In this document: one piece after another, positions 330 through 58,967 of the stretch
Numbering within the stretch: the stretch's first letter is position 1
Layout of the letters: the number at the start of each line of letters is the position of its first letter
NCBI GenBank assembly: GCA_041917695.1
Contig: JAYRXE010000037.1
Location: 2,155-66,154, forward strand
Source: Minisyncoccota bacterium
GTDB lineage: Bacteria > Patescibacteriota > Minisyncoccia > UBA6257 > GWB1-50-10
DNA length: 64,000 bases
Reading direction: 5' to 3'
Position numbers and translations under genes: made by a program
The notes under the pieces: model-generated
Seen by the model: only the letters and a program-made list of their open reading frames with translations
The model's database searches: none
What the model was told of the DNA's origin: nothing

Positions 330-1697
330 ATGGACCATAACGAATTGTGGCAGGCGGTTTTAGGGGATCTTGAAGTGCAGATCTCCCGCACCAATTTTCT
401 TACGTGGTTCAAACAGAGCAAGATTGTCGATCGGCGCGACGGTGAGGGTGTGGTACTCGTCGGCCTCCCCAACAACTTCGCGAAAGAATGGGTGAGGAAC
501 CGCTACCATAAACTTATTCTCGGTTCTCTCCGTAACATGGACTCGAGCGTGAAAAGCGTCGAATATTCCGTGGTCCACAACCATGCCGCGACGCTTGCGC
601 CGGCAAAGGCGGTGAAGCGCGAAGAGCGCCACACCCCCAAACTCCCCCTCGAATCGAAAATCGACCCCAAAACCAACCTCAACCCACGCTACACGCTCGA
701 ATCTTTGGTTGTGGGTTCCTCGAACGAGCTCGCGTATGCGGCAATCCAAGCGATTGTGAAGGAGCCGGGGAAAAAATACAATCCGCTTTTCATTTACGGC
801 GGCGTCGGATTGGGAAAAACCCACCTACTCCAGGGCGGGGGAAACGAAATCAAAAAAAAGTATGACAACCAAGTCCGCGTTTTTTACGTCACATCGGAAA
901 AATTCCTCAATGACGTCGTGGGCGCCATTAAAAACAAGCGCAGTGAGGATATTAAGAACAAATACCGCGACGTTGACGTGCTCATCATCGACGACATCCA
1001 ATTCATCGGCGGCAAGGCGGCGACCGAGCAGGAGTTTTTCCATACCTTCAACTCGCTCTACGAGAACAACAAGCAAATCATCATTTCCTCCGATAAGCCG
1101 CCGGGAGCCATCCCCATCCTCGAAGAGCGCCTCCGGAGCCGATTTGAGGGCGGCATGGTGGTCGATATCACGTATCCGGACTATGAGATGCGCCTCGCTA
1201 TCTTAAAATCCAAAATCGAGCGCGAGCAGGTGTATATCGAGGAGAAAATACTCGAACTTATTGCCTCGAAAGTGCAACGCAACATCCGCGAACTTGAAGG
1301 GGTGCTGAATAAGGTTATTTTTTACACCACTTTCAAAAAAGAGCGTATCGACGAGAAAAAAATAGACGATATTATCGGCGAAATCACCCAGGTAAGCCAC
1401 AAGAATGTGACACCCCAGGAGATCATCCGCATTGTTTCCGAGTTCTTTGAGATATCGACGAGCGACTTAGTGAATAAAGGCCGCAAGAAAGAAGTGGTTG
1501 AGCCCCGTCAAATCGCCATGTTCCTTCTCCGCGACGTCCTGAAACTTTCCTATCCCCACATCGGGGAGCGCCTGGGAAAGCGCGACCACACCACCGTCAT
1601 CCACGCCTGCGAGAAAATCAACCGCGAGATGAACGAAAACCCCCAACTCAACCAAAAAATCCTCCTTATCAAGGAACGGGTATATAAAGATGGATAA
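330..1697 (+). CDS. dnaA: chromosomal replication initiator DnaA
   Basis: 455-aa ORF with Walker A GGVGLGKTHL, an AAA+ core and a C-terminal DnaA-box binding domain (HTTV...). Synteny rpmH-dnaA-dnaN. Confidence 0.95.
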   Translation: MDHNELWQAVLGDLEVQISRTNFLTWFKQSKIVDRRDGEGVVLVGLPNNFAKEWVRNRYHKLILGSLRNMDSSVKSVEYSVVHNHAATLAPAKAVKREERHTPKLPLESKIDPKTNLNPRYTLESLVVGSSNELAYAAIQAIVKEPGKKYNPLFIYGGVGLGKTHLLQGGGNEIKKKYDNQVRVFYVTSEKFLNDVVGAIKNKRSEDIKNKYRDVDVLIIDDIQFIGGKAATEQEFFHTFNSLYENNKQIIISSDKPPGAIPILEERLRSRFEGGMVVDITYPDYEMRLAILKSKIEREQVYIEEKILELIASKVQRNIRELEGVLNKVIFYTTFKKERIDEKKIDDIIGEITQVSHKNVTPQEIIRIVSEFFEISTSDLVNKGRKKEVVEPRQIAMFLLRDVLKLSYPHIGERLGKRDHTTVIHACEKINREMNENPQLNQKILLIKERVYKDG

Positions 1698-1781
1698 CGT
1701 GGGGAAAAAGAGGTTCTTCCGCTGGGTATAAAAGAACTTTCTTCACCACCGAAAAAAGAGCGCTGGGGATAATCCCCAAAA

Positions 1782-5820: not shown

Positions 5821-6291
5821 TCAATCCTTCTTAAAGCCCGCCGCGATGGCTATCGCGACCGCATCCGTCTCATCGTCAACCTTACCGGACAAATCAGCCC
5901 CCGAGAACCGTCCGGCCATGCGGGCAACGTCGTTTTTTGCCGCCCGCCCATGCCCCGTGAGGAGGAGCTTCACCTCCATGGGCGAGATCTCAATGACGGG
6001 AATGTTGTTTTCCGCGAAAACCTTCAAAATGACGCCGCGGGCTTCTGCGACCGAGAGGGCGGTGGTCCGATTTTTTGAGAAAAAAAGCGTTTCAACGCCG
6101 GCCCGTTCGGGATGGTGCCGCGCAACAATCTCGCGAAGCGCGGTTTCGATGGTGAAAAGCCTGTCCGCCCGGCCCTCCCCGGAAGTTACCCGCAAAATAC
6201 CGCTCTCCACGTACGAGAAGGCGTTCTTCGCATAGTCGACGATACCGAATCCTGCGCGATCCGTCCCCGGGTCGATGCCGATAATGCGCAT
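5821..6291 (-). CDS. ruvC: crossover junction endodeoxyribonuclease RuvC
   Basis: MRIIGIDPGTDRAGFGIVDY is the RuvC N-terminal catalytic motif. The product is 156 aa. Confidence 0.9.
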   Translation of the reverse strand: MRIIGIDPGTDRAGFGIVDYAKNAFSYVESGILRVTSGEGRADRLFTIETALREIVARHHPERAGVETLFFSKNRTTALSVAEARGVILKVFAENNIPVIEISPMEVKLLLTGHGRAAKNDVARMAGRFSGADLSGKVDDETDAVAIAIAAGFKKD

Positions 6292-6294
6292 ATT

Positions 6295-7572
6295 TTATGA
6301 CGCCGAGTCCGCGGAGAGGGGGAGAGTGACCCAAAACGTGCTTCCGCGGCCTTCTTTGGATTCAAAGTTGGTTTGCCCCCCATGGCGCTCCACAATCTTC
6401 TTTACGATGTAGAGCCCCAAGCCGGTGCCGTTTGCGTCGGTTGAGGAGGCTCCGGCTCCGCGGGAGAATTTTTTGAAAAGCTTTGCACGGTCCGATTCAG
6501 CAATTCCCTTGCCGGTATCTTCGATGGAAATCTTTGCGATACGCCGTTCGGGGAACACTTCAAGACGCACCCGCGCCTCGCCGTTTTTTGTGTTGTATTT
6601 CACCGCGTTATCAATGAGGTTTCCGAGCGCGGTCCCGAGCGTCGCCTCATCGATGCGGGCGGAGGCGGACTCCCATTCCGGGGGAACGGGCTGGAAAAAG
6701 AGGTTTACCGAGCGCTCTTTGGCAAAAAGCGACCCCGCCTCGACGATTTTCCTGAGAAAAGGCGCGAGCGCCACGTCCGCCGGCGCGTAGTCGCCGCTTC
6801 CCGATTCTATCTTCGCCACCTCAAGCAGGTCGTTCACGATCTTTAATGAGCGCGCGGAAACCGAAAGCGCTTCGGTCGCGATGGGAAGGACGCCTGCCGG
6901 ATTTTCCGATGCGCCTTTCACGATGTTTTCGAGGGCCCAATTTATCGCGGTGAGGGGGGTGCGGAGCTGGTGCGCCGCCACGTCGACGAATTCTGATTTT
7001 TCCTCCGCGGTTTCCCGTTCTTCGCTCGCGTCACGCACGCTTTTGATGAAGTAGGCGATACCGCCCTGTTCATTCATGACCCGTGAAACGGACGTGAGGA
7101 ATTTGCGGGAAGGTTTTTCGGTGGTTATCTCGACCCGTTTCGGCCACGCGTCCGCGTCGCTTAATTCGGTCGCCGAGGCGGCCAGGGAAGGGAAGAGTAT
7201 TTGTATGAACAGGCGGTCGTTTCCCGCGAGGTCCGTCCGCGGTTCCGCTTTTTTGCCTTTCCATGCTTCGCGCGCAATACCAAACATTTTTTCAGTTGCG
7301 GCGTTCAAGGCGAGCAGACGGAATTCCTCGTCGTACACGATGACGCTTTCGTCGAGGTGCTCCGCAAGCGCGTCGAATCCCCGAGTCTTCACGTCGAATT
7401 CCTTTCGGAGAAGCGAGAGGGCTGATCGGTTGCGGTAGAGCGGTATGGCGACGACGGCAATACCGAGAAGTCCGGCAACGAGGTTTACGGGAAAAGAGAG
7501 AAACGCTCCGGCGGCGACAAGAAGCGCGCCAAGAAGGACGAGGACCGCGGATTGTTGGGTAAGAAAGCTCAT
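6295..7572 (-). CDS. membrane sensor histidine kinase (orphan)
   Basis: N-terminal TM segments, an H-box AAHQLRTPLTAI and an HATPase region with N, G1 and G2 motifs (IDNAVKYN, DTGKGI, GTGLGL). No response regulator nearby. The ATGA overlap couples it to polA. Confidence 0.85.
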   Translation of the reverse strand: MSFLTQQSAVLVLLGALLVAAGAFLSFPVNLVAGLLGIAVVAIPLYRNRSALSLLRKEFDVKTRGFDALAEHLDESVIVYDEEFRLLALNAATEKMFGIAREAWKGKKAEPRTDLAGNDRLFIQILFPSLAASATELSDADAWPKRVEITTEKPSRKFLTSVSRVMNEQGGIAYFIKSVRDASEERETAEEKSEFVDVAAHQLRTPLTAINWALENIVKGASENPAGVLPIATEALSVSARSLKIVNDLLEVAKIESGSGDYAPADVALAPFLRKIVEAGSLFAKERSVNLFFQPVPPEWESASARIDEATLGTALGNLIDNAVKYNTKNGEARVRLEVFPERRIAKISIEDTGKGIAESDRAKLFKKFSRGAGASSTDANGTGLGLYIVKKIVERHGGQTNFESKEGRGSTFWVTLPLSADSAS

Positions 7573-12728: not shown

Positions 12729-13052
12729 ATGCTTTGTACGAAGTGCGGGAGTGAAATTTCAGAAACTGATTATTTCTGCCCGCAGTGCGGGGTGAAAATC
12801 AGAAATCCCAGACTGTCGGTATCCTTCGGCGCGCAGGCGAAGGCGTATCTCGTAAGCGCGCTTTTCCCTCCTTTCGGGCTCTGGTACGCATACCGGTACA
12901 TGAAGAACGGGGATGCGCAGTCGAAGAAAATCGCCCTCGCAGTCGTTCTCGTTAATCTCGTCTTCTTTTTCATAACGCTTTGGCTCGCAGGAAAGATGCT
13001 GGATTATGCAAATAGGGAAGTCGAGCAGCAATTGAACGCATTCACGTTCTAG
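12729..13052 (+). CDS. zinc-ribbon membrane protein
   Basis: MLCTKCGSEI...CPQCG is a CxxC...CxxC zinc ribbon, followed by two TM helices. Start taken at the internal ATG. The ORF track begins at 12627. Confidence 0.5.
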   Translation: MLCTKCGSEISETDYFCPQCGVKIRNPRLSVSFGAQAKAYLVSALFPPFGLWYAYRYMKNGDAQSKKIALAVVLVNLVFFFITLWLAGKMLDYANREVEQQLNAFTF

Positions 13053-13062
13053 TTTCCGCTTA

Positions 13063-13088
13063 AAAACCGCGTTTACGCGGTTTTTTAT
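13063..13088. terminator. bidirectional intrinsic terminator
   Basis: Hairpin aaaaaccgcgtttacgcggttttttatt lies between convergent genes. Its T-tract overlaps the pilB stop codon. Confidence 0.55.
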
Positions 13089-14770
13089 TTCATCCACCAG
13101 TCGATGGAGCCGGTTACGTCCTCGACTTCCGTCCGGCTCGTCACGCCCCTCAGCATTTTCAAAACACCGTCCTCCTGGAGGAATACCAATCCCTCCTTCC
13201 GCGCCGCGTCTTTCAAATCGAATTCCGTCGGGCGCGTGTAGATAAGCCGTTGGATAGGTTCCGTCACGCGGAAGAGCTCGAAGATGGACGTGCGCCCCTT
13301 GTACCCGATGCCCTGGCACGCATCGCATCCGACCGGCTCGTATATTTCTATATTTGCGTACTCGCTTTTATCCACGTTCGCCGGCAGGGATTCAACGAAC
13401 TTCTTTATCGCTTCCTTCTGAGCCTCGGAAAGCTCGAGAGGCTTCCTGCATTCCTTGCAGAGTACGCGAACCAATCGCTGGGCGATGACGAGGCGCAAGC
13501 CCGGCGCGAGGATTTGCGCCTCCGCGCCGAGGTTCAGCATGCGGGGGATCGCTCCGATCGCATCGTTCGTGTGGAGCGTCGAAAAAACGAGGTGGCCGGT
13601 GAGCGAGGCGTTCAGCGCCGTCTCGGCGGTGTCTTTGTCGCGGATTTCACCGACGAGGACCACGTCCGGGTCTTGCCGGAGAATGGAGCGGAGGCCGTTT
13701 GCGAAGGTGTAGTTCGCTTCCTCGTCGACCTGCGTCTGTGAGATGCCTTCCAGATGGTATTCGATGGGGTCTTCGACGGTGATGATTTTGATTTCCGGAT
13801 TTTTCACGTGAGACAGGAAGGCGTAGAGCGTCGTCGTCTTACCGCTTCCGGTGGGGCCGGTGTTCAGGATAAGGCCGTTCGGCTGGGCGATTTCGTGGCG
13901 CGCCACTTCAAGCAAATCTTTCCGCCAGCCCAATTCTTCGAGGTTGGCTTTCAAAGACGAGGGGTCGAGCAAACGCATGACGACCGTTTCGCCGTATTCG
14001 GAGGGGATGACGGAGGTGCGGACTTCGATGGCCTTGCCGGACGCTTTGATGGTGAAGCGCCCGTCCTGCGCTTCGCGGTGGATATTCAACTTCAATCCCG
14101 AAAGGAGCTTGATGCGCGTTACCACCGAGTGGTAGGTGTGCGTCTCGAACGCGTCGTAGGCGGTGTGAAGGATGCCGTCGAGGCGCAGGCGGAAGGTGTT
14201 TTTCGTTTCACCCGCTTCCAAGTGGATGTCGGAAGCGCCGAGGGTAAGCCCGCCCGCCAAAACGATCTCGAGCATTTGGGACGTGTACTCATTGATGTGT
14301 TCTTCGATTTCCGCGGAAAGGTCGGCGATGCTCTTAATGCGGTCGATGAGGTCTTCCAAGTGCGCCGGGTCGATGGAGACCGAACCGCTGATTTCCTTCA
14401 CCTCGGTAACGTACTGGTAATAGCTCCAGGCGTAATTCAGGGAGGTCAGCGAAACGACGAATATCTCGAGCGTCACGCCGGGCGTCGCCTTGAGTTTTTC
14501 GAGAGCTTCTTTTGCGGAGGGCGTGAGCGGGTCGAATGTGGCGACGAGGAGTTTTTGCTTGGAAATTTCAAACGGCGCGACGAGCGCGTCGTGGGCATCG
14601 GCCTCCTTCATGAGGCGCAGGGCTTTCAGGTTCACGGGGATTTTCGAAGCGATGAGGTCGAGATAGGGAAGTCCGGCGCGCGCCGCGCGCCGTTCGGCGT
14701 CCTTTTCCTCGGCGACGTGCCGTTGCTTCGCGAGCTCTTCGTCGAGACCTTTTTGGGAGGCGCTGAACAT
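13085..14770 (-). CDS. type II secretion / type IV pilus assembly ATPase (GspE/PilB family)
   Basis: Walker A GPTGSGKTTT, an Asp box, Walker B and His box, and a C-terminal tetracysteine CDACQGIGYKGR. Confidence 0.9.
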   Translation of the reverse strand: MFSASQKGLDEELAKQRHVAEEKDAERRAARAGLPYLDLIASKIPVNLKALRLMKEADAHDALVAPFEISKQKLLVATFDPLTPSAKEALEKLKATPGVTLEIFVVSLTSLNYAWSYYQYVTEVKEISGSVSIDPAHLEDLIDRIKSIADLSAEIEEHINEYTSQMLEIVLAGGLTLGASDIHLEAGETKNTFRLRLDGILHTAYDAFETHTYHSVVTRIKLLSGLKLNIHREAQDGRFTIKASGKAIEVRTSVIPSEYGETVVMRLLDPSSLKANLEELGWRKDLLEVARHEIAQPNGLILNTGPTGSGKTTTLYAFLSHVKNPEIKIITVEDPIEYHLEGISQTQVDEEANYTFANGLRSILRQDPDVVLVGEIRDKDTAETALNASLTGHLVFSTLHTNDAIGAIPRMLNLGAEAQILAPGLRLVIAQRLVRVLCKECRKPLELSEAQKEAIKKFVESLPANVDKSEYANIEIYEPVGCDACQGIGYKGRTSIFELFRVTEPIQRLIYTRPTEFDLKDAARKEGLVFLQEDGVLKMLRGVTSRTEVEDVTGSIDWWMK

Positions 14771-14867: not shown

Positions 14868-14896
14868 TTGACTTTTTTACAATTTAGTTGTATAAT
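14868..14896 (+). promoter_or_regulatory. consensus sigma70 promoter (TTGACT-17-TATAAT)
   Basis: ttgacttttttacaatttagttgtataat lies 60 nt upstream of an AAGGAGA RBS. Confidence 0.55.
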
Positions 14897-14954
14897 TAAA
14901 GATAGAAATAGTAAAAAAATAATTTAAAAACATTTCTTTAAGGAGAAATCAAAA

Positions 14955-15575
14955 ATGAAATCAATCGTAATTGCTTTAATAGCTTGCGTTATTTGTCTTT
15001 CACCGGTTCAGGTACATGCTCAGAAAAACCCCGTTAAAAAAACAACGAAGGTGTTCAGGGACGTAGTCACTGATATCGGAAAGACTATTGAAACGGTTTT
15101 CAAGACAAAAACCCGCGTGGAAAAAACAATTGAAGAGAATATGCCGAAGCAGGGTGAATTTGCCGTCGTGAATTCCTACGGCGAAAACTTCATTACTGTG
15201 GTGGAATTAAAAACATCACAAAGTGAGGTAAGCGACGTATTGGCACCGGGGGAAATTGCGAAACTTCCAGCAGAGATATCGCCCACAGATAAAAAAGAAT
15301 TAGTCTGCGGATTTATAAAGGTGTATTACTTCGAACAGTATGCGCCTTCACGGGATAAGGACGGGAACTACGTTTGTAACACCGATGGAAGCCATGTATA
15401 TGGGGACGCCATCTTCTTAGGAAGTTATCCAATTAAGGACTATCTAACTTTCCGGGAACCTATCCAACAGTTATCAGCCGAGAAAAATTTATCTCGTTAT
15501 CTGCGGGACATAAAAAAGCAAAGCAAGATGTATAAAGAACAGTATGAAGCGGAAACGGGCGAAGTAGCGCAGTGA
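14955..15575 (+). CDS. secreted hypothetical protein (signal peptide, AT-rich)
   Basis: MKSIVIALIACVICLSPVQVHA looks like a signal peptide. The gene has a strong RBS and promoter and is followed by a terminator. Confidence 0.55.
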   Translation: MKSIVIALIACVICLSPVQVHAQKNPVKKTTKVFRDVVTDIGKTIETVFKTKTRVEKTIEENMPKQGEFAVVNSYGENFITVVELKTSQSEVSDVLAPGEIAKLPAEISPTDKKELVCGFIKVYYFEQYAPSRDKDGNYVCNTDGSHVYGDAIFLGSYPIKDYLTFREPIQQLSAEKNLSRYLRDIKKQSKMYKEQYEAETGEVAQ

Positions 15576-32351: not shown

Positions 32352-32708
32352 ATGCCCTACGGAATGAGTCAGAAAGACGTCGATTATAATCAAAGGCTTG
32401 AAAAGCAGTTTCGGAAAAAGCGGGAGATGAAAAAACTTCTGGAAGACCCCGTGTATGGCGAAAAGCTTTTGAATATGCATTGGCAGGAGACTGAGCTTGG
32501 AACGATAAGCACGCGTTCATTGAACATCCTTATTTGGGCCAAGGGAACCAGGGCTCCGCTGAAAGATATTCTTACCCTTACCGAACACAGGCTTTTATCT
32601 TTCAGAAGCTGCGGAAAAAAGTCGGTGGCTGAAATCAATGAAAAGCTCAAAGAGATGGGGTTGCATTTAGGAATGCAATTACCGGAAGAAAAAAAGATCC
32701 CCACATGA
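32352..32708 (+). CDS. stand-alone RNA polymerase alpha-subunit C-terminal-domain-like (HhH) protein
   Basis: RSLNILIWAKG...LLSFRSCGKKSVAEINEKLKEMGLHLGMQL aligns with the alphaCTD consensus RSANCLK...[28 protein letters not shown]. Confidence 0.6.
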   Translation: MPYGMSQKDVDYNQRLEKQFRKKREMKKLLEDPVYGEKLLNMHWQETELGTISTRSLNILIWAKGTRAPLKDILTLTEHRLLSFRSCGKKSVAEINEKLKEMGLHLGMQLPEEKKIPT

Positions 32709-32728
32709 CGCGGGGATTTTTCTTTTTA

Positions 32729-32886
32729 CTGTGGAGATGGTGGGAATTTCACATCGCTCCGCTCTTTGGAACCCAGCGGTTCCAATACCTCCGCCACGGG
32801 GAAACTCTCGTTTCCCTGGCCCCTTTCCTAGTTCAACTCCATATCTCCGAAATCAAATTACCTCCCATTGGGAGGTAATTTGATTC
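32729..32886 (-). repeat. tmRNA 3'-flanking structured module ending in a copy of the tmRNA acceptor 3' strand
   Basis: ctgtggagatggtgggaatttcac at 32729-32752 duplicates the ssrA 3' end at 32886. The intervening sequence shares hairpins and motifs with the modules that follow tRNA-Pro and tRNA-Lys. Confidence 0.7.
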
Positions 32887-33218
32887 TGTGGAGATGGTGG
32901 GAGTTGAACCCACGTCCGATGAGGAGCGTCCATGCGATCTACGAGCGTAGTTTCTGATTGCTCAGAGGAACGATATTCCGAACTGGATTTCTCGCTTTCC
33001 CTTCTTTGTCCGGAGGGTCCGGAAAAGCCAGCCTAAGGTATTACACCGGATGCCTCCTATTAGGCATCAGAGTCCGATGTCCGGAGCGTTACGCCGCGAA
33101 GGCGAACGCCGGAACTGCAACTTTGTTGTTGTCAGTTAGTGTTTGTGGCCGGAGTACGAGCGTGCCGTCTCGGCCCGCACGCGTGAGCGCTTTCTTACCG
33201 TCGAAGCCCGACATCCCC
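32887..33218 (-). ncRNA. ssrA: tmRNA (ssrA)
   Basis: 5' GGGGAUGUCGGGCUUCGACGG pairs with 3' CAUCUCCA. The T-arm GGUUCAACUCCC is present. The tag ORF ends ...VAVPAFAFAA-UAA. The gene is adjacent to smpB. Confidence 0.88.
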
Positions 33219-33547: not shown

Positions 33548-33988
33548 CTATTTGTGAAACCTGCGGATTTCGCGTTCGGTTTCGCGCTTCTTGATCACCT
33601 CGCGCTTGTCGAACTGCTTTTTCCCGCGCCCGAGTCCAAGCTCAAGCTTCAGGAATCCGCGCTTATTGTTATAGAGCGAGACGGGGACGAGGGTCAAGCC
33701 GGTTTTCATTTTTTCAGCGAGGGTTTTCAGCTCTTTTTTACCGAGAAGGAGTTTCCGCGTCCGGTCCGGCTTGTGGGATTCGGGGACGTTTCCCGGCTGG
33801 AAGGGCTGGATCATGAGGCCGACCACGAAAGCCTCGCCGTTCCGGATGATGGCGTGCGAGCCCTGGAGGTTCGCCCGGCCCATTTTCACCGATTTCGCCT
33901 CAAGACCGGTCAAAACAACCCCCGCCTCGAGGGTGTCGAGTATCTCATAGTCGAATCTAGCTCTTTTATTGACGGCGTAGGGTTCCAT
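33548..33988 (-). CDS. smpB: SsrA-binding protein SmpB
   Basis: AVNKRARFDYEI...GLEAKSVKMGRANL. ATG chosen at MEPYAV. The ORF track extends to a TTG at 34018. Confidence 0.88.
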   Translation of the reverse strand: MEPYAVNKRARFDYEILDTLEAGVVLTGLEAKSVKMGRANLQGSHAIIRNGEAFVVGLMIQPFQPGNVPESHKPDRTRKLLLGKKELKTLAEKMKTGLTLVPVSLYNNKRGFLKLELGLGRGKKQFDKREVIKKRETEREIRRFHK

Positions 33989-34041
33989 ACGTAGCCTAAG
34001 GGTAGCATTTAATATCAATTTAAAAAAAGAAAGGAGGCCGT

Positions 34042-36525: not shown

Positions 36526-39500
36526 ATGCTGAAGAAGATAGAAAAATTCTCACTCCCGGACGTCGAAACGCGCGTCCTGGAATTTTGGAAGAAGAACAAG
36601 ACGTTCGAGCGCGCGCTTTCCCGCGGGAAAAAGCGGAAGACTTTTGTTTTTTACGAAGGCCCGCCGACGGCGAACGGCCGCCCCGGCATCCACCATGTGC
36701 TCGGCCGGGCCTTTAAGGACGTCGTTTTGCGGTACAAGACGATGCGGGGCTACCACGTTCCGCGGAAGGGCGGATGGGATACCCACGGGCTTCCCGTCGA
36801 GATTGAAGTGGAAAAAACCCTTGGGCTCAAATCGAAGCGGGAAATCGAGGAATACGGCGTTGCCGAGTTTAATGCGGAATGCCGCAAGTCGGTGTGGAAG
36901 TACAAGGATGAATGGGAGCGGCTCACGGAACGCATGGGCTTTTGGCTCGATATGGACCGGCCGTACGTTACGTATAAGAACGAATATATTTCTGTCGTAT
37001 GGCAGGTCGTGAAGGAAATCGAGAAACGGGGCCTCATCTATAAGGGGCATAAGATCGTTCCGTGGTGCACGCGGTGCGGCACCGCGCTTTCCTCCCATGA
37101 GCTCGCGCAAGGCTACCGGGAGGTTACGGACAATTCGGTATATGTGAAATTCAAGGTTGCGAGCAAGGCCTTTAACGACGGCACTCCCGTTCCGCCGAAC
37201 ACCTACATTCTTTCGTGGACGACGACTCCCTGGACGCTTCCGGGGAACGTTGCCCTCGCCGTCGGTAAAAAAATATCTTATTCATATATTGAGGTAGGGG
37301 ATGAGCGGTATATTGTTGCGACTGATCTCATCACGAAAATCTTTCCATCTTCGGAAGATACGGCTCGGAGCGGAAAAGAGTTCCTGGGGGAAAACCTTCT
37401 TGGTTTGCGGTACGACCCGCTTTTCCGGGTTAATTCTAAGGAATTTGAAAACAATGAGCGCGCCTTCACGGTGCAACCCGCAGATTTCGTAACGACGACG
37501 GACGGCACGGGTGTCGTGCATACCGCCGTGATGTACGGCGAGGATGACTACCGGCTCGGCGAGGAGCTCGGCCTTCCGCAATTCCATACGGTTTCAGCCG
37601 ACGGGCGTTTTGTTCCCGACGTTGAGGGTATTGCGGGGGAGAAGGCGAAGACCCCGGAGACCGAGGAAAAAATTTTCACCCATCTGCGTTCCCGGGGGCT
37701 GCTTTTCAAGATCGAGCCGTATGTCCATGAATACCCGCATTGTTGGCGTTGCGGAACGCCGCTCCTCTACTACGCGAGGCATTCGTGGTTTGTGCGCATG
37801 AGCAGCCTGCGCGGAGCGCTTATGAAGGAAAACGCGAAGATCAACTGGATTCCCGAGAATCTGCGCGAGGGCCGGTTCGGTGCGTGGCTTTCCGAGGCGA
37901 AGGATTGGGCGATTTCGCGCGAGCGGTATTGGGGTACGCCTTTGCCCATATGGGAATGCGACCGCTGCCCCGAACGGAGGGTCGTAACGGGGGATGCTGA
38001 TTTTGCGGAGCTCAAGCCGAAAAACCGCTATATCCTCATGCGCCACGGCTATTCCGAAAGCAATGCGAAAGATATGCTCGATTCGCACGGCGGCAAGAAG
38101 ACCTTTCCGCTTACGAAACGCGGAGAGCGCGAAGCGCGGGAAGCCGCACGGAAGCTCGGGAAGGAAAAAGTCGACGTCGTATTCGCTTCGGATGTGTACC
38201 GCGCGAAACAGACGGCGGAAATCGTTTCCGAGGCGCTCGGCGCCCCCGTGCACATCGATCCGCGCTTACGCGAAATAAACGTAGGATCGCTTGCCGGAAC
38301 GTCCCACCGGAAATTCGACGCCCTCCCCGAAAAACTGAAATTTCTCGAGGCGGTTCCGGGCGGAGAATCCCGCAATGATGTGCGCCGCCGAGTATACGCT
38401 TTTTTGAAGGAATGCGAGGAAAAATACGACGGGCAGACGATCCTTGTCGTGAGCCATGACGATCCGTTGTGGATGATGCTTGCCGTGATGAACGGCTGGG
38501 ATTCCGACGAGGCGATCGCGTGGGCGAAACGCAAAAAAGGAGCCTTGTTTCCCTTTGCGGGCTTTTCCAAAGCCGACTATCGGGTGATTCCCCGCGATGA
38601 ATTGGGGGTGAAGGATTACCACAAGCCGTATATCGACGAGATGGCTTTCCCGTGCGTGTGCGGGGGGAGGATGCGCCGCGCGCCGGAGGTCATGGACGTG
38701 TGGTTCGATTCCGGTTCGATGCCCTGGGCGCAAAAAGGGTACCTGTATGCCCCGAAAGCCAAAAGAATCGACCGTTCAGACTTCCCGGCTGATTATATCG
38801 CCGAAGGCGTCGACCAGACCCGCGGGTGGTTCTACACCATGCTTGCCATCGGCGTTCTTTTGGAGGCGGGTTCTCCCTATAAGACGGCGATGTCTTTGGG
38901 GCTCCTCTTGGATTCCAAAGGCCAAAAAATGTCCAAGTCGAAAGGCAACGTGGTCGATCCCTGGGAGATGATGGAGCGCCACGGCGTTGACGTTGCGCGC
39001 TGGTTTTTCTTCACGGTGAATCCGCCCGGCGAGCCGAAGCGCTTCGACGAACGCGAGCTCGTGAAGGTTTCCCGGCAGGTCTTCATGATTCTTTACAACT
39101 CGTTCGCCTTCCTCGATTTATACGGGAAGCAAACCGCGCGACGGAAAATCGTTCCGACCCACGTGCTCGACCGGTGGGTGATGGCGCGGCTTCACGCGAC
39201 GATTCAAGCGACTCAAAAGGCCATGGACGCGTATGAAATAGGGGACGCCGCCCGCGCAATCCAGGGACTCGTGGACGACCTTTCGCGCTGGCATATCCGC
39301 CGGAGCCGGAAGCGTTTCCAACGGCCCGTCTCGCAAAAAGACCGCGAGCAGGCTTCCGCGGTCCTCGCGCACGTGATGCGGGAGATCGCAAAGCTTCTGG
39401 CGCCTTTCACGCCGTTCTTCGCGGAGGCACTCTATAAATCCCTTTCGCAGAAGGCGTCTGATTCCGTGCATCTTGCTTCCTGGCCGGCGTTTGAGAAAAA

Positions 39501-40011
39501 GCTTTTTGACGCGAAACTCCTTTCCTACATGGAGGAGACTCGCCGCATTGCGAGCCTCACGCTCGCCAAGCGCGCCGAACTGGGCATCAAGGTCCGCCAA
39601 CCCCTTGCCGAGTTGCGCGTGAAATCCACCCTTTTGAAGGGCGTGAAGGCGAAGGAATGCCTCCTTATTTTGAAGGACGAGGTGAACGTGAAGCGCGTCG
39701 TTTTCGACCCATCGCTTACCGAAGAAATAACGCTCGATACGGCGATCACCCCCGAATTGAAGGAAGAGGGTTTGCTTCGCGAGCTTGTCCGCGCCATCCA
39801 GGAACTCCGTCAGGAAGCGGGGTTCGTACCGAAAGACAAGGTGCGCGTCTACGTTTCGGGCGCGGGTTTGGGGCTTATCGAACGCCACGGCGATTTCCTG
39901 AAGCGGGAAGTGAATGCGCGCTCCATCGAATTCCAGCATTTGGTGAAAAAAGCGAAAGCCGAAACGACCGTAGACCTCGACGAGGGCCACGCCTGGATCG
40001 GCGTCCTCTAA
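36526..40011 (+). CDS. ileS: isoleucine--tRNA ligase carrying an inserted histidine-phosphatase (PGAM-like) domain
   Basis: HIGH-type PPTANGRPGIHH, WAISRERYWGTP and KMSKSKGN. An insert of about 215 aa (37960-38620) contains ILMRHGYSESN and ILVVSHDDP. Confidence 0.9.
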   Translation: MLKKIEKFSLPDVETRVLEFWKKNKTFERALSRGKKRKTFVFYEGPPTANGRPGIHHVLGRAFKDVVLRYKTMRGYHVPRKGGWDTHGLPVEIEVEKTLGLKSKREIEEYGVAEFNAECRKSVWKYKDEWERLTERMGFWLDMDRPYVTYKNEYISVVWQVVKEIEKRGLIYKGHKIVPWCTRCGTALSSHELAQGYREVTDNSVYVKFKVASKAFNDGTPVPPNTYILSWTTTPWTLPGNVALAVGKKISYSYIEVGDERYIVATDLITKIFPSSEDTARSGKEFLGENLLGLRYDPLFRVNSKEFENNERAFTVQPADFVTTTDGTGVVHTAVMYGEDDYRLGEELGLPQFHTVSADGRFVPDVEGIAGEKAKTPETEEKIFTHLRSRGLLFKIEPYVHEYPHCWRCGTPLLYYARHSWFVRMSSLRGALMKENAKINWIPENLREGRFGAWLSEAKDWAISRERYWGTPLPIWECDRCPERRVVTGDADFAELKPKNRYILMRHGYSESNAKDMLDSHGGKKTFPLTKRGEREAREAARKLGKEKVDVVFASDVYRAKQTAEIVSEALGAPVHIDPRLREINVGSLAGTSHRKFDALPEKLKFLEAVPGGESRNDVRRRVYAFLKECEEKYDGQTILVVSHDDPLWMMLAVMNGWDSDEAIAWAKRKKGALFPFAGFSKADYRVIPRDELGVKDYHKPYIDEMAFPCVCGGRMRRAPEVMDVWFDSGSMPWAQKGYLYAPKAKRIDRSDFPADYIAEGVDQTRGWFYTMLAIGVLLEAGSPYKTAMSLGLLLDSKGQKMSKSKGNVVDPWEMMERHGVDVARWFFFTVNPPGEPKRFDERELVKVSRQVFMILYNSFAFLDLYGKQTARRKIVPTHVLDRWVMARLHATIQATQKAMDAYEIGDAARAIQGLVDDLSRWHIRRSRKRFQRPVSQKDREQASAVLAHVMREIAKLLAPFTPFFAEALYKSLSQKASDSVHLASWPAFEKKLFDAKLLSYMEETRRIASLTLAKRAELGIKVRQPLAELRVKSTLLKGVKAKECLLILKDEVNVKRVVFDPSLTEEITLDTAITPELKEEGLLRELVRAIQELRQEAGFVPKDKVRVYVSGAGLGLIERHGDFLKREVNARSIEFQHLVKKAKAETTVDLDEGHAWIGVL

Positions 40012-51301: not shown

Positions 51302-51337
51302 TAAGATCCCAAACTCCGCGTATGCGGGGTTTTTTAT

Positions 51338-51669
51338 TGGGCGTAGAAATTTCACGTCGCGGGGCTGGGGAATTGAACAATTCGCCCTTTCCCGTTCAAT
51401 TCACTCCTAGTCCTAAAACCCCGATCTGAAATATCGGGGTTCGGACGAACAAATCCGCCTTCAGGCGGATTTGTTTTAGTCGGGCTGCTGGGAATTTCAC
51501 GTCGTCCCGCCGAAGGCGTGACTCCTTGAGAACCGAGGGTTCTCAACCGCCAGTTGGCGGTCTCTCCGACACGGAAGGGACACATCCGTTTCCCTTCCGA
51601 CCCATCCCTCGTTCAATTCCCTAATTCAACAAACGCAAACGCAGGCTGAATGCCTGCGTTTGTATTTAG
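51338..51669 (-). repeat. two tandem tRNA-3'-flanking structured modules (module 1 about 51480-51669, decayed module 2 about 51338-51479)
   Basis: Module 1 is about 90% identical, in inverted orientation, to 58660-58852 and ends in GACGTGAAATTCCCAGCAGCCCGA. Module 2 ends in CGTGAAATTTCTACGCCCA. Confidence 0.7.
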
Positions 51670-51740
51670 TCGGGCTGCTGGGAATTGAACCCAGTCTACC
51701 TGCTCCCAAAGCAGGCGTACTACCGGTATACGACAGCCCG
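51670..51740 (-). tRNA. tRNA-Pro (anticodon TGG)
   Basis: CGGGCTG...CAGCCCG-A. Anticodon loop TTTGGGA. Outside the anticodon arm it is identical to the tRNA-Pro at 58589. Confidence 0.85.
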
Positions 51741-55750: not shown

Positions 55751-55823
55751 GCCCCGTTAGCTCAGTTGGTAGAGCAGTTGCCTCTTAAGCAAACGGTCCT
55801 AGGTTCGAGCCCTAGACGGGGCA
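55751..55823 (+). tRNA. tRNA-Lys (anticodon CTT)
   Basis: GCCCCGT...ACGGGGC-A. Anticodon loop CTCTTAA. Confidence 0.85.
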
Positions 55824-55963
55824 CACCGTGCATTTTATTCCAGAGCTCGAACCCGTATGGGGTCGGGAGCGGCGGAACGCTCCCGCGGAGGAATGCATGC
55901 CTGCGTAGGCAGGCATTGAAAACCGTGGGTTTTCAACTCCGTGAGATTGCCCTAGACGGGGCA
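55824..55963 (+). repeat. tRNA-Lys 3'-flanking structured module ending in a copy of the tRNA-Lys 3' end
   Basis: It contains hairpin gcatgcctgcgtaggcaggcat and hairpin TTGAAAACCgtgGGTTTTCAA, then CCGTGAGATTGCCCTAGACGGGGCACAC, which repeats the tRNA 3' end at 55811-55826. Confidence 0.7.
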
Positions 55964-56005
55964 CACTTTTCGCTTTCAATCCCTCTTCTTGTAGGATAAA
56001 CATGC

Positions 56006-58588: not shown

Positions 58589-58659
58589 CGGGCTGTCGTA
58601 TACCGGTAGTACGCACGCTTCGGGTGCGTGTAGACTGGGTTCAATTCCCAGCAGCCCGA
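58589..58659 (+). tRNA. tRNA-Pro (anticodon CGG)
   Basis: CGGGCTG...CAGCCCG-A. Anticodon loop TTCGGGT. Starts 4 nt after the dut stop. Confidence 0.85.
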
Positions 58660-58852
58660 CTAAATACAAACGCAGGCTGAATGCCTGCGTTTGTGTTTGT
58701 TGAATTAGGGAATTGAACGAGGGATGGGTCGGAAGGGAAACGGATGTGTCCCTTCCGTGTCGGAGAGACCGCCAGCCGGCGGTTGAGAACCGAGGGTTCT
58801 CAAGGAGTCCCGCCTTTGGCGGGACGACGTGAAATTCCCAGCAGCCCGACCA
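58660..58852 (+). repeat. tRNA-Pro 3'-flanking structured module (four hairpins) ending in GACGTGAAATTCCCAGCAGCCCGACCA
   Basis: Hairpins: aaacgcaggctgaatgcctgcgttt, ggaagggaaacggatgtgtcccttcc, ccgccagccggcgg, ttgagaaccgagggttctcaa and cccgcctttggcggg. Then comes a T-loop-like motif and a copy of the acceptor 3' strand. An inverted copy is at 51480-51669. Confidence 0.75.
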
Positions 58853-58967
58853 ATAATCTAAAAGCCGCCTTAAGGCGGCTTTTAGATTAGAAAATTTGCC
58901 TCATTTTTGCTTTTCCTGTATGACAAAGGCAGAAATATTAACGTTTTAAAACGAAAGAGAGGGATAC

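Follow-up and report, generated by a model that had tools for sequence, protein, structure and literature searches.

Gene-less modules behind tRNA and tmRNA genes of Patescibacteria resemble miniature mobile elements with target-derived arms

Within the 64-kb stretch of DNA analysed here (64,000 nucleotides of an ultra-small bacterium of the Patescibacteria, or CPR; hereafter the window), the 3′ ends of half the tRNA and tmRNA genes are occupied by gene-less modules of 130-190 nt which appear to be miniature mobile elements of a type not described before; full-text literature searches returned no description of them. We think it likely that the modules are mobile insertions rather than RNA genes of the host, and a purely cellular RNA function is unlikely. 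Whether they are, jointly, non-autonomous insertion cassettes of Patescibacteria, specific for tRNA and tmRNA 3′ ends and equipped with a folded site that is used in trans, is in our judgement an evenly balanced proposition, and the mechanistic part of it (a folded att site served by a recombinase in trans) is tentative. The miniature-element reading is nevertheless the best available because of empty sites, att-type repeats, arrays, cargo and the presence of one core subtype at three different tRNAs. The most informative feature of the modules is an inverted arm derived from the target itself.

Modules in the window

Host coordinates were called with ARAGORN and Rfam. As an earlier note on this DNA had described, modules follow tRNA-Pro(CGG), tRNA-Pro(TGG), tRNA-Lys(CTT) and tmRNA, and there is a fifth, decayed copy. 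This last one lies behind the module of tRNA-Pro(TGG). The features are as follows.

Module A, behind tRNA-Pro(CGG), plus strand
58589-58659, +: host tRNA-Pro(CGG) (ARAGORN, Rfam)
58643-58660, +: proximal repeat (gene 3′ end and one trailer nucleotide)
58661-58707, +: proximal part, with CTAAAT trailer, terminator-like hairpin (stem 58666-58694) and spacer
58708-58718, +: box GGGAATTGAAC, reverse complement of host GTTCAATTCCC (tRNA positions 53-63)
58719-58828, +: conserved core, with a purine-rich junction; helices P2 58730-58757, P2a (an extra hairpin) 58769-58782, P3 58783-58803, P4 58807-58825
58829-58836, +: T-loop-like GTGAAATT, overlapping the distal repeat
58833-58850, +: distal repeat AATTCCCAGCAGCCCGAC
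58856-58887, +: native terminator of tRNA-Pro(CGG), ATCTAAAA-hairpin-TTTTAGAT, like the post-module flank in relative L167

Module B and the fifth cassette, behind tRNA-Pro(TGG), minus strand
51670-51740, -: host tRNA-Pro(TGG) (ARAGORN, Rfam)
51669-51686, -: proximal repeat AATTCCCAGCAGCCCGAC
51479-51668, -: module B, with hairpin 51635-51663 and box 51611-51621; helices P2 51572-51599, P2a 51547-51560, P3 51526-51546, P4 51504-51522
51493-51500, -: T-loop-like GTGAAATT
51479-51496, -: distal repeat
51337-51478, -: fifth, decayed cassette, stacked behind module B
51449-51474, -: its hairpin, with CTAAAA trailer; second hairpin 51417-51444
51394-51404, -: its box GTGAATTGAAC; core largely deleted
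51365-51378, -: its GTTCAATTCCCCAG
51337-51355, -: its end, GTGAAATT and degenerate repeat TCTACGCCCAA
51311-51335, -: native terminator behind the fifth cassette

Module C, behind tmRNA, minus strand
33548-34018, -: smpB, immediately upstream of tmRNA
32886-33218, -: host tmRNA (ssrA; ARAGORN, Rfam)
32886-32902, -: proximal repeat TCCCACCATCTCCACAG
32729-32885, -: module C, with hairpin 32851-32885
32843-32848, -: GGAGAT, reverse complement of the acceptor 3′ strand
32831-32840, -: box GGAGTTGAAC, reverse complement of host GTTCAACTCC
32793-32820 and 32766-32785, -: helices P2 and P3
32745-32752, -: T-loop-like GTGAAATT
32729-32745, -: distal repeat
32691-32721, -: native terminator after module C

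Module D, behind tRNA-Lys(CTT), plus strand
55751-55823, +: host tRNA-Lys(CTT) (ARAGORN, Rfam)
55809-55826, +: proximal repeat GCCCTAGACGGGGCACAC
55827-55966, +: module D, a divergent copy without a terminator-type hairpin
55845-55853, +: box GCTCGAACC, reverse complement of host GGTTCGAGC
55865-55884, 55896-55916 and 55916-55936, +: helices P2, P2a and P3
55886-55890/55937-55941, +: CGGAG/CTCCG helix
55941-55948, +: T-loop-like GTGAGATT
55949-55966, +: distal repeat
56006: tRNA-Arg(TCG), downstream of tRNA-Lys(CTT)

A module reads as a 5′ arm (the box), a conserved core (P2 and P3, with variable P2a and P4) and a 3′ arm composed of the T-loop-like sequence and the repeat. The motifs reported earlier were all found again: the hairpin immediately behind the discriminator base, the box, a GGGAAACG hairpin, a TTGRRAACC..GGTTYYCAA hairpin, and a GTGARATT motif that leads into an exact copy of the host 3′ end. 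Modules A and B, whose host genes have identical 3′ halves, are themselves near-identical except in two loops, those of the first hairpin and P3, which are reverse complements of each other in the two modules. A terminator-like hairpin separates tRNA and module in most copies. The first hairpin 3′ of tmRNA fails a simple terminator test. The CTAAAWACAAA sequence with its hairpin, also noted behind tRNA-Arg(CCG), is indeed present there but is only a terminator of the local type, and no module follows it. Similarly, the modules had been said to accommodate no ORF; mechanically called ORFs do overlap them, but these run through the tRNA genes and are not credible.

All four intact modules end in a direct repeat of 17-18 nt of the host 3′ end. 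The earlier description of this repeat as an exact copy of the acceptor 3′ strand was right as to the exact copying but too narrow, as it spans the T-stem 3′ strand, the acceptor 3′ strand, the discriminator and 1-3 trailer nucleotides. In module A the distal repeat is followed by CA, such that the distal copy reads ...GA-CCA. Repeat lengths computed in twelve modules from the genome scan are 14-35 nt; over all repeats read, the length ranges between 14 and more than 45 nt. The left edge is nearly fixed at about T-loop position 57-61. The right edge is variable, lying anywhere between +0 and +13 nt or more past the gene, and once runs through the terminator; at one locus (L066) the duplication takes in both trailer and terminator, in direct orientation. 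Several copies have a one-nucleotide addition at the T-loop junction. The host tRNA remains intact at modules with flanking repeats: since the cassette lies between two copies of the host 3′ segment, the gene is preserved and its former 3′ end is moved downstream. A whole cassette consists of a trailer, usually with a terminator hairpin, optional cargo, and a structured module of 110-170 nt.

Target-derived arms around a covarying core

The box had been reported as a shared motif, and its consensus GGARTTGAAC-NRGG-RA-NGGG does occur four times against 0.39 expected. The GGARTTGAAC portion, however, is not generic: in every module it is the reverse-complemented T-loop and T-stem 3′ strand of the host concerned. 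Out of 10 variable positions, the reverse-complemented box agrees with its own host at 8.0 and with other hosts at 5.5, a correspondence that was reached by none of 20000 permutations. Likewise, base 57 of the T-loop-like end equals base 57 of the host in every copy read. With the host T-loop and T-stem repeated in inverted form by the box, every module becomes a long hairpin in which target-derived arms enclose the conserved core, and the segment from host T-loop to box always folds as a single long hairpin; in module A the proximal part and box close it onto the host T-loop. The fold is probably that of the sense strand, and the basal stem of the hairpin reproduces the target duplex. In GTGA-type copies the box is closer to the real T-loop of the host than to the module's own T-loop-like arm, in that it copies the host GTTC where that arm has GTGA.

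A covariance model (R1) trained without the Lys copy and the fifth copy recovered both of them, with 33.5 bits (E = 4e-7) and 23 bits (E = 3e-4), respectively, and found no other significant match in the 64-kb window. R1 matches 31 copies in the window and the genome-scan loci, the latter having been pre-selected with a motif pattern before the R1 search, and four further copies in syntenic relatives (one each in L167 and L170 and two in L171). The check proposed in the earlier note, a covariance-model search of related genomes for the same module behind tRNA genes, thereby has a positive outcome: about 35 R1 modules are present in MAGs of Patescibacteria, where they follow tRNAs of at least 12 isotypes, and R1-type cores occur in MAGs labelled Paceibacterota, Liptonbacteria, Wolfebacteria, Saccharibacteria and others. 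As the motif pattern by which relatives were selected demanded the conserved core, its conservation is in part a product of ascertainment. Three further core families follow the same box and repeat logic (L141, L170).

Compensatory changes, the other check proposed earlier, are plentiful. Across the R1 helices pairing is kept in 87.6% of cells and 17 of 28 pairs change on both sides, values reached by none of 500 shuffles. P3 covaries at all eight of its pairs. In the arm helix P1, where a 2-nt mismatch or a 1-nt bulge recurs, 79% of cells are paired. G.T exceeds A.C in P2 (8 against 2) and in P3 (at least 5 against 0, by hand alignment), the P2 loops are of GNRA type, and the purine-rich core is strongly conserved. 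Wobble pairs and GNRA loops favour a fold of the sense strand, whereas single-sequence folding energies fail to separate the two strands. In Rfam 15 only the tRNA and tmRNA models match the window at gathering and permissive (E≤10) thresholds, and nothing credible was returned for module families 1-4 in L022, L170 and L141. A core that is conserved, covarying and common to several CPR classes is to be read as a functional cis element and not as debris.

Probable mobility, proposed mechanism and alternative readings

The distribution of modules among relatives is that expected of an insertion. In the related L164-166 and L168 no module occupies the Pro(CGG), Pro(TGG) or Lys site; the Pro(CGG) site is filled in L167, where the distal flank terminator has the same ATCTAAAA-hairpin-TTTTAGAT form, and other relatives carry modules at tRNA-Ala (L170) and tRNA-Pro(TGG) (L171). 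No R1 module was found at 34 tmRNA genes in 722 kb of other CPR contigs around smpB homologues, the 80 smpB loci being too distant for flank-by-flank comparison with the window. In one MAG (DATAXS01) near-identical cores sit at Arg(CCT), Gly(CCC) and Glu(CTC), with arms and repeats that differ by site. Cassettes also stack: newer ones adjoin the gene, older ones are pushed outwards and the most decayed lie farthest from the tRNA, as with module B and the fifth copy behind tRNA-Pro(TGG). Some enclose genes, namely a 445-aa ORF between two modules with the same repeat (L071) and hicA/hicB between tRNA-Asp and a module (L056). The modules thus resemble CIMEs in being att-flanked and free of mobility genes, with empty and filled orthologous tRNA sites. 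Near modules in relatives we also observed plain partial tRNA duplications that lack the core (L126 and unit 1 of L170). Separately, one tmRNA (L152) is followed by a 1.25-kb integrase-less islet with a DUF3800 ORF and a repeat of ~170 nt.

Our searches revealed no helper. By Pfam, the 49 window ORFs are housekeeping genes only (dnaA, dnaN, polA, recG, smpB, tRNA synthetases and others), with no integrase, transposase, recombinase or reverse transcriptase; the cargo of L056 and L071 contains no Phage_integrase or other recombinase family; and no intI-like gene was found in the window or in the annotated relatives L164-L174. The arrays start at tRNA genes. No recombinase was linked to modules in the other genomes, which were read as 8-20 kb pieces, and no circular or excised form was seen. 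The integrase-bearing full-length element that the earlier note had envisaged did not emerge from viral contigs, where a pattern scan gave three chance matches, all inside coding sequence, or from blastn against phage and plasmid records. We therefore infer mobilisation in trans by a putative helper. By analogy with integron attC sites and the CTX-phage attP(+) hairpin, the folded single strand may act as the cis-acting recombination site for a putative recombinase encoded elsewhere, docking at the tRNA T-loop region. A single-stranded form of the DNA would probably come from transformation or replication; site specificity would be set or maintained by the arm that matches the target, and retargeting might proceed via hairpin-templated correction. 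Counting against this folded-site model, both arms and the carried 3′ end have to change in concert whenever the site moves to another tRNA. The closer match of the box to the host T-loop than to its own arm is not predicted by a pure self-hairpin site, the fixed left and variable right repeat edges are also compatible with target-primed or copy-type insertion, and the conserved core and GNRA loops would be equally fitting for an RNA.

The last point bears on a reading in which the module is a structured RNA beneficial to the host, a co-transcribed 3′ extension of the tRNA or tmRNA that is then processed out, possibly to regulate or assist tRNA 3′ maturation or to mask the duplicated 3′ fragment. 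We regard this as unlikely. The covarying helices, the GNRA-type P2 loops, the sense-strand G.T excess and the strongly conserved purine-rich core would all suit it, and read-through is plausible where the tmRNA hairpin fails the terminator test and where the Lys module has no terminator. However, modules are absent from orthologous tRNAs of related genomes and from the 722 kb of other CPR contigs, no Rfam family matches, and co-transcription of the box would break up the T-arm of the tRNA; there are also stacked arrays, decayed copies and cargo genes. It is the patchy occurrence, the terminator before most modules and the same flanks around four unrelated cores that disfavour a host RNA function. 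The tRNA-linked RNA proposed in the earlier note may hence survive as a molecular form, but hardly as a host function.

An improbable alternative is a SINE-like retroelement whose transcript, with the tRNA 3′ segment at its end, would pair with the T-loop of a nicked tRNA gene and be inserted by target-primed reverse transcription, in which case the repeat would be a target-site duplication. The near-fixed left edge (about 57-61) with a right edge from +0 to +13 nt or more, the single-nucleotide additions at the T-loop junction and the RNA-like fold agree with this, and new sites would gain the tail of the new host automatically, which fits the retargeting in DATAXS01. Against it, the inverted box is left unexplained, including its copy of host GTTC where the module arm has GTGA; most modules have a terminator upstream, which speaks against their being transcribed routinely; the repeats hold genomic trailer sequence and no CCA end; and the window has no reverse transcriptase. 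Group II introns, which are retroelements encoding a reverse transcriptase themselves, went undetected in Patescibacteria (PMC13011429).

It is quite improbable that no dedicated element is involved and that, as in tandem-inversion duplications, hairpin-driven template switching during replication at tRNA and terminator hairpins of repair-poor CPR genomes produced the modules. Such events could account for a tRNA tail present as direct, inverted and second direct copy around two hairpin apices, for the two loops flipped between modules A and B, and for the core-less duplications in relatives, but not for the same ~100-nt core behind at least 12 isotypes in MAGs with diverse labels, nor for core subtypes common to different tRNAs within one genome, as local switching is unable to import foreign conserved sequence; horizontal spread of the core is suggested. 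Lastly, it is very unlikely that the modules are inert att scars of integrase-bearing prophages or islands that suffered internal deletion at tRNA genes: att-type repeats of tRNA 3′ ends and small integrase-less islets in relatives (L152) are in keeping with this, but independent deletions would not yield the same boundaries and a covarying core at dozens of sites, site-specific arms surround shared cores, and viral contigs, phage and plasmid records held no full-length relative. The integrative-element reading of the earlier note thus stands in its non-autonomous form, which fits best, while "scars" is too weak a word for a functional cis element.

Several other identities were rejected. Casposons and mini-casposons make a 14-15 bp duplication at tRNA-Pro. 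The modules lack terminal inverted repeats at the insert ends, which excludes such an element, and their inverted arms vary by site and copy the host, with repeats of 14 to >45 nt, unlike a MITE. Single-strand transposition of the IS200/IS605 type produces no duplication, serine recombinases are ruled out by the long repeats, and a giant palindrome from a hairpin-capped break is incompatible with the direct-orientation duplication of trailer and terminator in L066. Hammerhead, HDV-like and other ribozyme cores are not visible. For a group I intron remnant, no intron model matches, and CPR tRNA introns lie in the anticodon loop, not the T-loop (PMC13011429).

Implications and comparison with known systems

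The genomes of CPR bacteria are tiny, and few mobile elements have been recognised in them. Gene-less stacking cassettes with possible cargo would be a main route of genome plasticity in this large, uncultured lineage. On the practical side, modules break short-read assemblies at tRNA genes (contigs carrying the window locus end at Pro modules) and can give spurious partial tRNA calls. Their anatomy is unusual in that the conserved scaffold has the target on one side as an inverted copy and on the other as a direct one. More speculatively, Patescibacteria may harbour a folded-single-strand cassette system that can dock at any tRNA or tmRNA T-loop region, places site choice in a nucleic-acid arm rather than a protein, either as a tRNA-anchored integron-like system or as a guide-directed one, and employs several unrelated scaffold families; we consider this doubtful at present. 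If the arm directs insertion, the system would be reprogrammable through 11-16 nt, with appeal as a tool, and the four scaffold families offer natural controls for experiments.

tRNA-integrating islands and tycheposons, tyrosine-recombinase elements of which integrase-less derivatives exist, also integrate at the 3′ part of tRNA and tmRNA genes (10.1101/2020.12.28.424599). They and the modules alike leave a full gene on one side and a partial tRNA copy on the other, push older elements outwards by serial integration with decayed remnants staying behind, and carry cargo such as toxin-antitoxin genes. The modules differ in being gene-less, 130-190 nt long and without an adjacent integrase, and in having a conserved covarying hairpin core and an inverted target copy. 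We know of no such core or inverted copy described for the islands. With CIMEs and MITE-type elements the modules share the absence of mobility genes, the reliance on cis sites only, the many copies per genome and, by inference, dependence on a helper; the "terminal inverted repeats" of the modules, in contrast, are copied from each target instead of being fixed ends, and insertion is strictly site- and orientation-specific.

Integron attC sites and the CTX attP(+) hairpin are single-stranded recombination sites that act in folded form with tyrosine recombinases, and the modules resemble them in architecture. In each, a structured site of about 60-140 nt terminates the cassette and the stem is usually irregular (a bulge or tandem G.A mismatch). 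The paired arms of the site (...YGAAC / GTTCRA... in the modules) rebuild a duplex recombination site, the fold is strand-specific and the recombinase acts in trans, all three putatively so for the modules. Integron cassettes, too, stack beside a fixed docking site, and some of the cassettes are empty. The module arms ...AATYGAAC / GTTCRATT... match the attC core-site consensus (R″/R′, RYYYAAC / GTTRRRY) at 6/7 positions each, a resemblance that falls short of identity, and the apex is unlike attC, being conserved in sequence where attC apices are variable. Moreover, a tRNA T-loop would take the place of attI or dif as the dock, the repeats of 14-35 nt must restore a tRNA tail whereas the integron system uses a 7-nt core, and no link of the modules to IntI or Xer emerged.

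Finally, elements that carry guides (IS110 bridge RNA or seekRNA, IS200/IS605 guides and the EBS of group II introns) come with a DEDD, HUH or reverse-transcriptase gene, which the modules lack. The modules have long direct repeats and a single contiguous arm of 11-16 nt (helix P1) that addresses one target strand, as against a two-loop bridge or 4-nt guides. What these guide-bearing elements and the modules have in common is an internal segment complementary to the target across the insertion point, which varies with the target while the scaffold is held constant.

Modules behind tRNA and tmRNA genes in the window

The window starts with dnaA and dnaN and its remaining genes are housekeeping genes; its CCA-adding enzyme is closest to homologues that carry the name Candidatus Jorgensenbacteria or Patescibacteria. 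With ARAGORN and Rfam, eight RNA genes are found, seven for tRNA and one for tmRNA, and non-coding modules lie behind four of them: tRNA-Pro(CGG) (module A), tRNA-Pro(TGG) (module B), tmRNA (module C) and tRNA-Lys(CTT) (module D). A decayed fifth copy is present behind module B, and there is no module behind the window's tRNA-Arg(CCG), Leu(CAG), Gly(TCC) or Arg(TCG). The motifs listed in the earlier note were all found in the window where it had placed them. Each module ends with an exact repeat of 17-18 nt of the 3′ end of its host (the gene that carries it), comprising the T-stem 3′ strand, the acceptor 3′ strand, the discriminator and 1-3 trailer nucleotides. Since a -10-like sequence lies before tRNA-Arg(TCG), this gene may or may not share a transcript with tRNA-Lys across module D. 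Two other features of the window are recorded here.

330-2995: dnaA/dnaN, the chromosomal replication-origin region; the five cassettes lie less than 60 kb away
36526-40011: isoleucyl-tRNA synthetase-like protein (1161 aa) with a His_Phos_1 (histidine-phosphatase) domain inserted at residues 503-663, which is unusual for a class I synthetase

Target-derived arms and a conserved fold

A feature overlooked in the earlier note is the origin of the box, the GGARTTGAAC motif on the 5′ side of the module. In each module it is the reverse complement of the T-loop and T-stem 3′ strand of that module's own host.

Boxes and the host sequences that they complement
Pro: box GGGAATTGAAC; host sequence GTTCAATTCCC
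tmRNA: box GGAGTTGAAC; host sequence GTTCAACTCC
Lys: box GCTCGAACC; host sequence GGTTCGAGC

For the 23 modules whose host is known, box and host agree at 8.0 of 10 variable positions, against 5.5 when the box is compared with other hosts; none of 20000 permutations reached the total for own hosts. Likewise, T-loop position 57 of the module 3′ arm holds the same purine as the host in all copies read. Together with the distal repeat, the box means that the tRNA tail is present three times, in the order direct (gene), inverted (box) and direct (distal repeat), and in some modules, such as the one behind tmRNA, the inverted copy reaches into the acceptor strand. On folding, the stretch from host T-loop to box always forms one long hairpin with the 'terminator' at its top; in the alternative fold, helix P1 is formed by the box and the distal T-loop-like arm and encloses the conserved core. 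At three loci from two MAGs (L014, L040 and L058) a second conserved nested motif, CTCTCGGCG...CGCCTCCGAGA, lies within the long hairpin, and may be a further small hairpin element or a piece of a longer cassette form. At L067 (~1690-1730, minus strand) the module fits, by its box and its repeat, the 3′ half of a tRNA-Thr-like gene (T-arm and acceptor strand) at which ARAGORN detects no complete tRNA; the host is possibly a fragment of a gene, or a tRNA with an intron such as have been reported in Patescibacteria.

The modules form a real and structured family, which is widespread yet patchy. One pattern scan over 185,579 species genomes, in which the pattern required the conserved core so that family breadth and sequence conservation are both ascertained, gave 79 loci. 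About 25 of these are true modules, all from Patescibacteria MAGs (one such genome bears the label Bdellovibrionales), and the labels of the MAGs that share this core span several CPR groups; the other matches are chance ones within coding sequence of other phyla. Hosts among the scan loci are Ser, Arg, Asp, Glu, Gln, Val, Ile, Gly, Leu and Thr genes, which Ala, Pro, Lys and tmRNA join once the window and its syntenic relatives are counted. No Rfam family matches the modules of the window and its relatives, and searches of phage and plasmid records and of viral contigs found no module. In 722 kb flanking smpB homologues on other CPR metagenome contigs there were no matches to R1, the covariance model of the family, and none of 34 tmRNA genes had a module directly 3′.

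The earlier note had proposed a covariance model and a search for compensatory changes. R1, built from 25 copies, recovered the window's Lys and fifth copies, neither of which was used to train it, and extra copies in the scan loci. It also gives a weak match at 13007-13135 on the minus strand (15 bits, E ~0.05, E-values from this model being rough), mostly coding sequence beside a T2SSE ATPase gene and probably due to chance. In an alignment of 31 copies, fitted to the model and hence biased towards structure, 87.6% of cells are paired and both sides change in 17 of 28 pairs (8/8 in core helix P3, 5/9 in P2 and 4/11 in P1, where about half of the copies carry a 2-nt mismatch of the GTGA type). 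Shifted registers all score far worse than the real alignment of these copies, none of 500 shuffles reached the observed pairing and covariation values, and the same compensatory changes are already visible in a MAFFT-only alignment. Pairs of the G.T type exceed A.C (8 versus 2 in P2; at least 5 versus 0 in P3, by hand alignment) and P2 loops are mostly GNRA, so the fold is selected on the strand with tRNA sense, acting as RNA or as single-stranded DNA.

Three more families without sequence similarity to the main core each combine an inverted T-loop arm with a repeat starting at position ~54-57, and fold into a long hairpin of which the tRNA tail is the 3′ arm. Unrelated cores with the same flanks indicate that generality lies in the architecture and not in a particular core.

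Further core families
Family 2: behind tRNA-Ile(GAT), loci L141 and L126
Family 3: behind both tRNA-Pro genes, locus L170; the arm differs exactly at the positions where the two hosts differ
Family 4: behind tRNA-Lys, locus L170

Empty sites, movement and stacking

Syntenic loci were taken from contigs with CCA-enzyme homologues, a comparison that covers 8-20 kb pieces of other genomes.

Syntenic loci, with CCA-enzyme identity to the window
L164-166 (73%): Pro(CGG), Pro(TGG) and Lys each followed by just a simple terminator; Lys-Arg gap 39 nt
L168/169 (67%): Pro(CGG), Pro(TGG) and Lys without insert
L167 (73%): identical tRNA-Pro(CGG) with a canonical module (R1, 103 bits)
L170 (67%): module behind tRNA-Ala(CGC)
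L171 (67%): module behind tRNA-Pro(TGG)

The terminator past the distal repeat of L167 has the same form as that of the window, ATCTAAAA-hairpin-TTTTAGAT. After the window's distal Pro(CGG) copy comes CA, giving ...GA-CCA as in the empty L164 gene, and after the proximal copy comes CTAA, as in L167; this agrees with the distal copy having been the end of the gene originally. Near-identical strains with identical CCA enzymes (L173 and L174) differ by an insert of ~95 nt at tRNA-Pro(CGG), flanked by a 14-nt repeat, CCCTGCACCCCGAC. In the MAG DATAXS01, near-identical cores sharing subtype-specific features lie behind Arg(CCT), Gly(CCC) and Glu(CTC), with box, T-loop-like end and repeat differing site by site; the core therefore moves between tRNA genes of one genome, and the arms come from, or are fitted to, the target. 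The modules are thus insertions.

Several local rearrangements were also seen. Downstream of tRNA-Pro(CGG), the terminator hairpins of L173 (4766-4875) and L174 (3340-3420) are wholly different between conserved flanks and seem to be swapped as units. Modules A and B are near-identical, 7 kb apart and in opposite orientation, and the loops of two hairpins (window 51635-51663 versus 58666-58694, and 51526-51546 versus 58783-58803) are exact reverse complements (TGAAT/ATTCA and GAG/CTC), so that both hairpins read alike on the genome plus strand. This suggests gene conversion or template switching confined to palindromic hairpins; hairpin-level DNA events do happen here. In L171, 2-3 units of a 27-nt tandem repeat, AATTCGACTTCGCTCATGGTCTACGAC (~6230-6300 and 14880-14964), lie after one tRNA-Pro(TGG)-type module and before a second one 8 kb off at the contig end, which could be an assembly effect.

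Cassettes also accumulate. The decayed fifth copy, with its own CTAAA-type trailer and hairpin and a degenerate terminal repeat, lies outside intact module B, and the newest cassette is therefore nearest the gene. L071 has two modules with the same repeat around a 445-aa and a 73-aa ORF, with further decayed tRNA-Glu tails; in L056, hicA/hicB separate tRNA-Asp from a module that has lost its distal end and has a box matching tRNA-Asp over 17 nt; and in L044 there is a second module, which is divergent and in which P2 is expanded. Tycheposon islands stack in the same way, are kilobases long and encode their own integrase (10.1101/2020.12.28.424599). At L152 (10687-12400) an islet of 1.25 kb lies behind a tmRNA gene; it encodes a DUF3800 protein, has no integrase and is bounded by a repeat, ~170 nt long, of the 3′ part of the tmRNA, and is a bigger, gene-carrying analogue of the cassettes. 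Short-read contigs with the window's locus (L001 and CCA-enzyme contigs) are ~6-8 kb and end at the two tRNA-Pro modules, and the cassettes behave as assembly-breaking repeats in CPR metagenomes.

A proposed folded site for a recombinase

Insertion at t(m)RNA 3′ ends is site- and orientation-specific and preserves the gene, and the modules are non-autonomous, with a sense-strand fold and target-derived arms. We infer that the folded module is a putative cis-acting site for an enzyme encoded elsewhere. Such a site does not predict that the box copies the host GTTC where the module's own arm is GTGA. On retargeting, both arms and the carried tail would have to be replaced, possibly through correction templated within the hairpin, a kind of DNA-level event of which the flipped loops of modules A and B are an example. 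Target-primed, copy-type insertion would make retargeting easy and would account for a repeat whose left edge is fixed and whose right edge varies, but it is without a candidate reverse transcriptase and leaves the box unexplained. Less likely are a host function as RNA, against which the empty orthologous sites and the unrelated cores with like flanks speak, and a pure artefact of replication, against which speaks the recurrence of one core behind many different tRNAs.

The earlier note's observation is upheld and extended. Its suggestion of a miniature non-autonomous integrative element is the better of its two readings, except that 'scar' is the wrong word for a cis structure that is conserved and functional. 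We rate the modules as belonging with site-specific integrative elements at tRNA genes; no description of them was found in Rfam 15 or by full-text literature searches, and the mechanism behind them has a genuine chance of being new. Integron attC and the CTX attP(+) hairpin are sites where a tyrosine recombinase acts on a folded single strand, and by analogy we favour this enzyme class for the folded module. The grounds are that its stem rebuilds the target duplex and is nearly always irregular at some point, that the docking site at which cassettes stack is fixed, and that the module arms resemble the RYYYAAC/GTTRRRY of integron attC at 6/7 positions.
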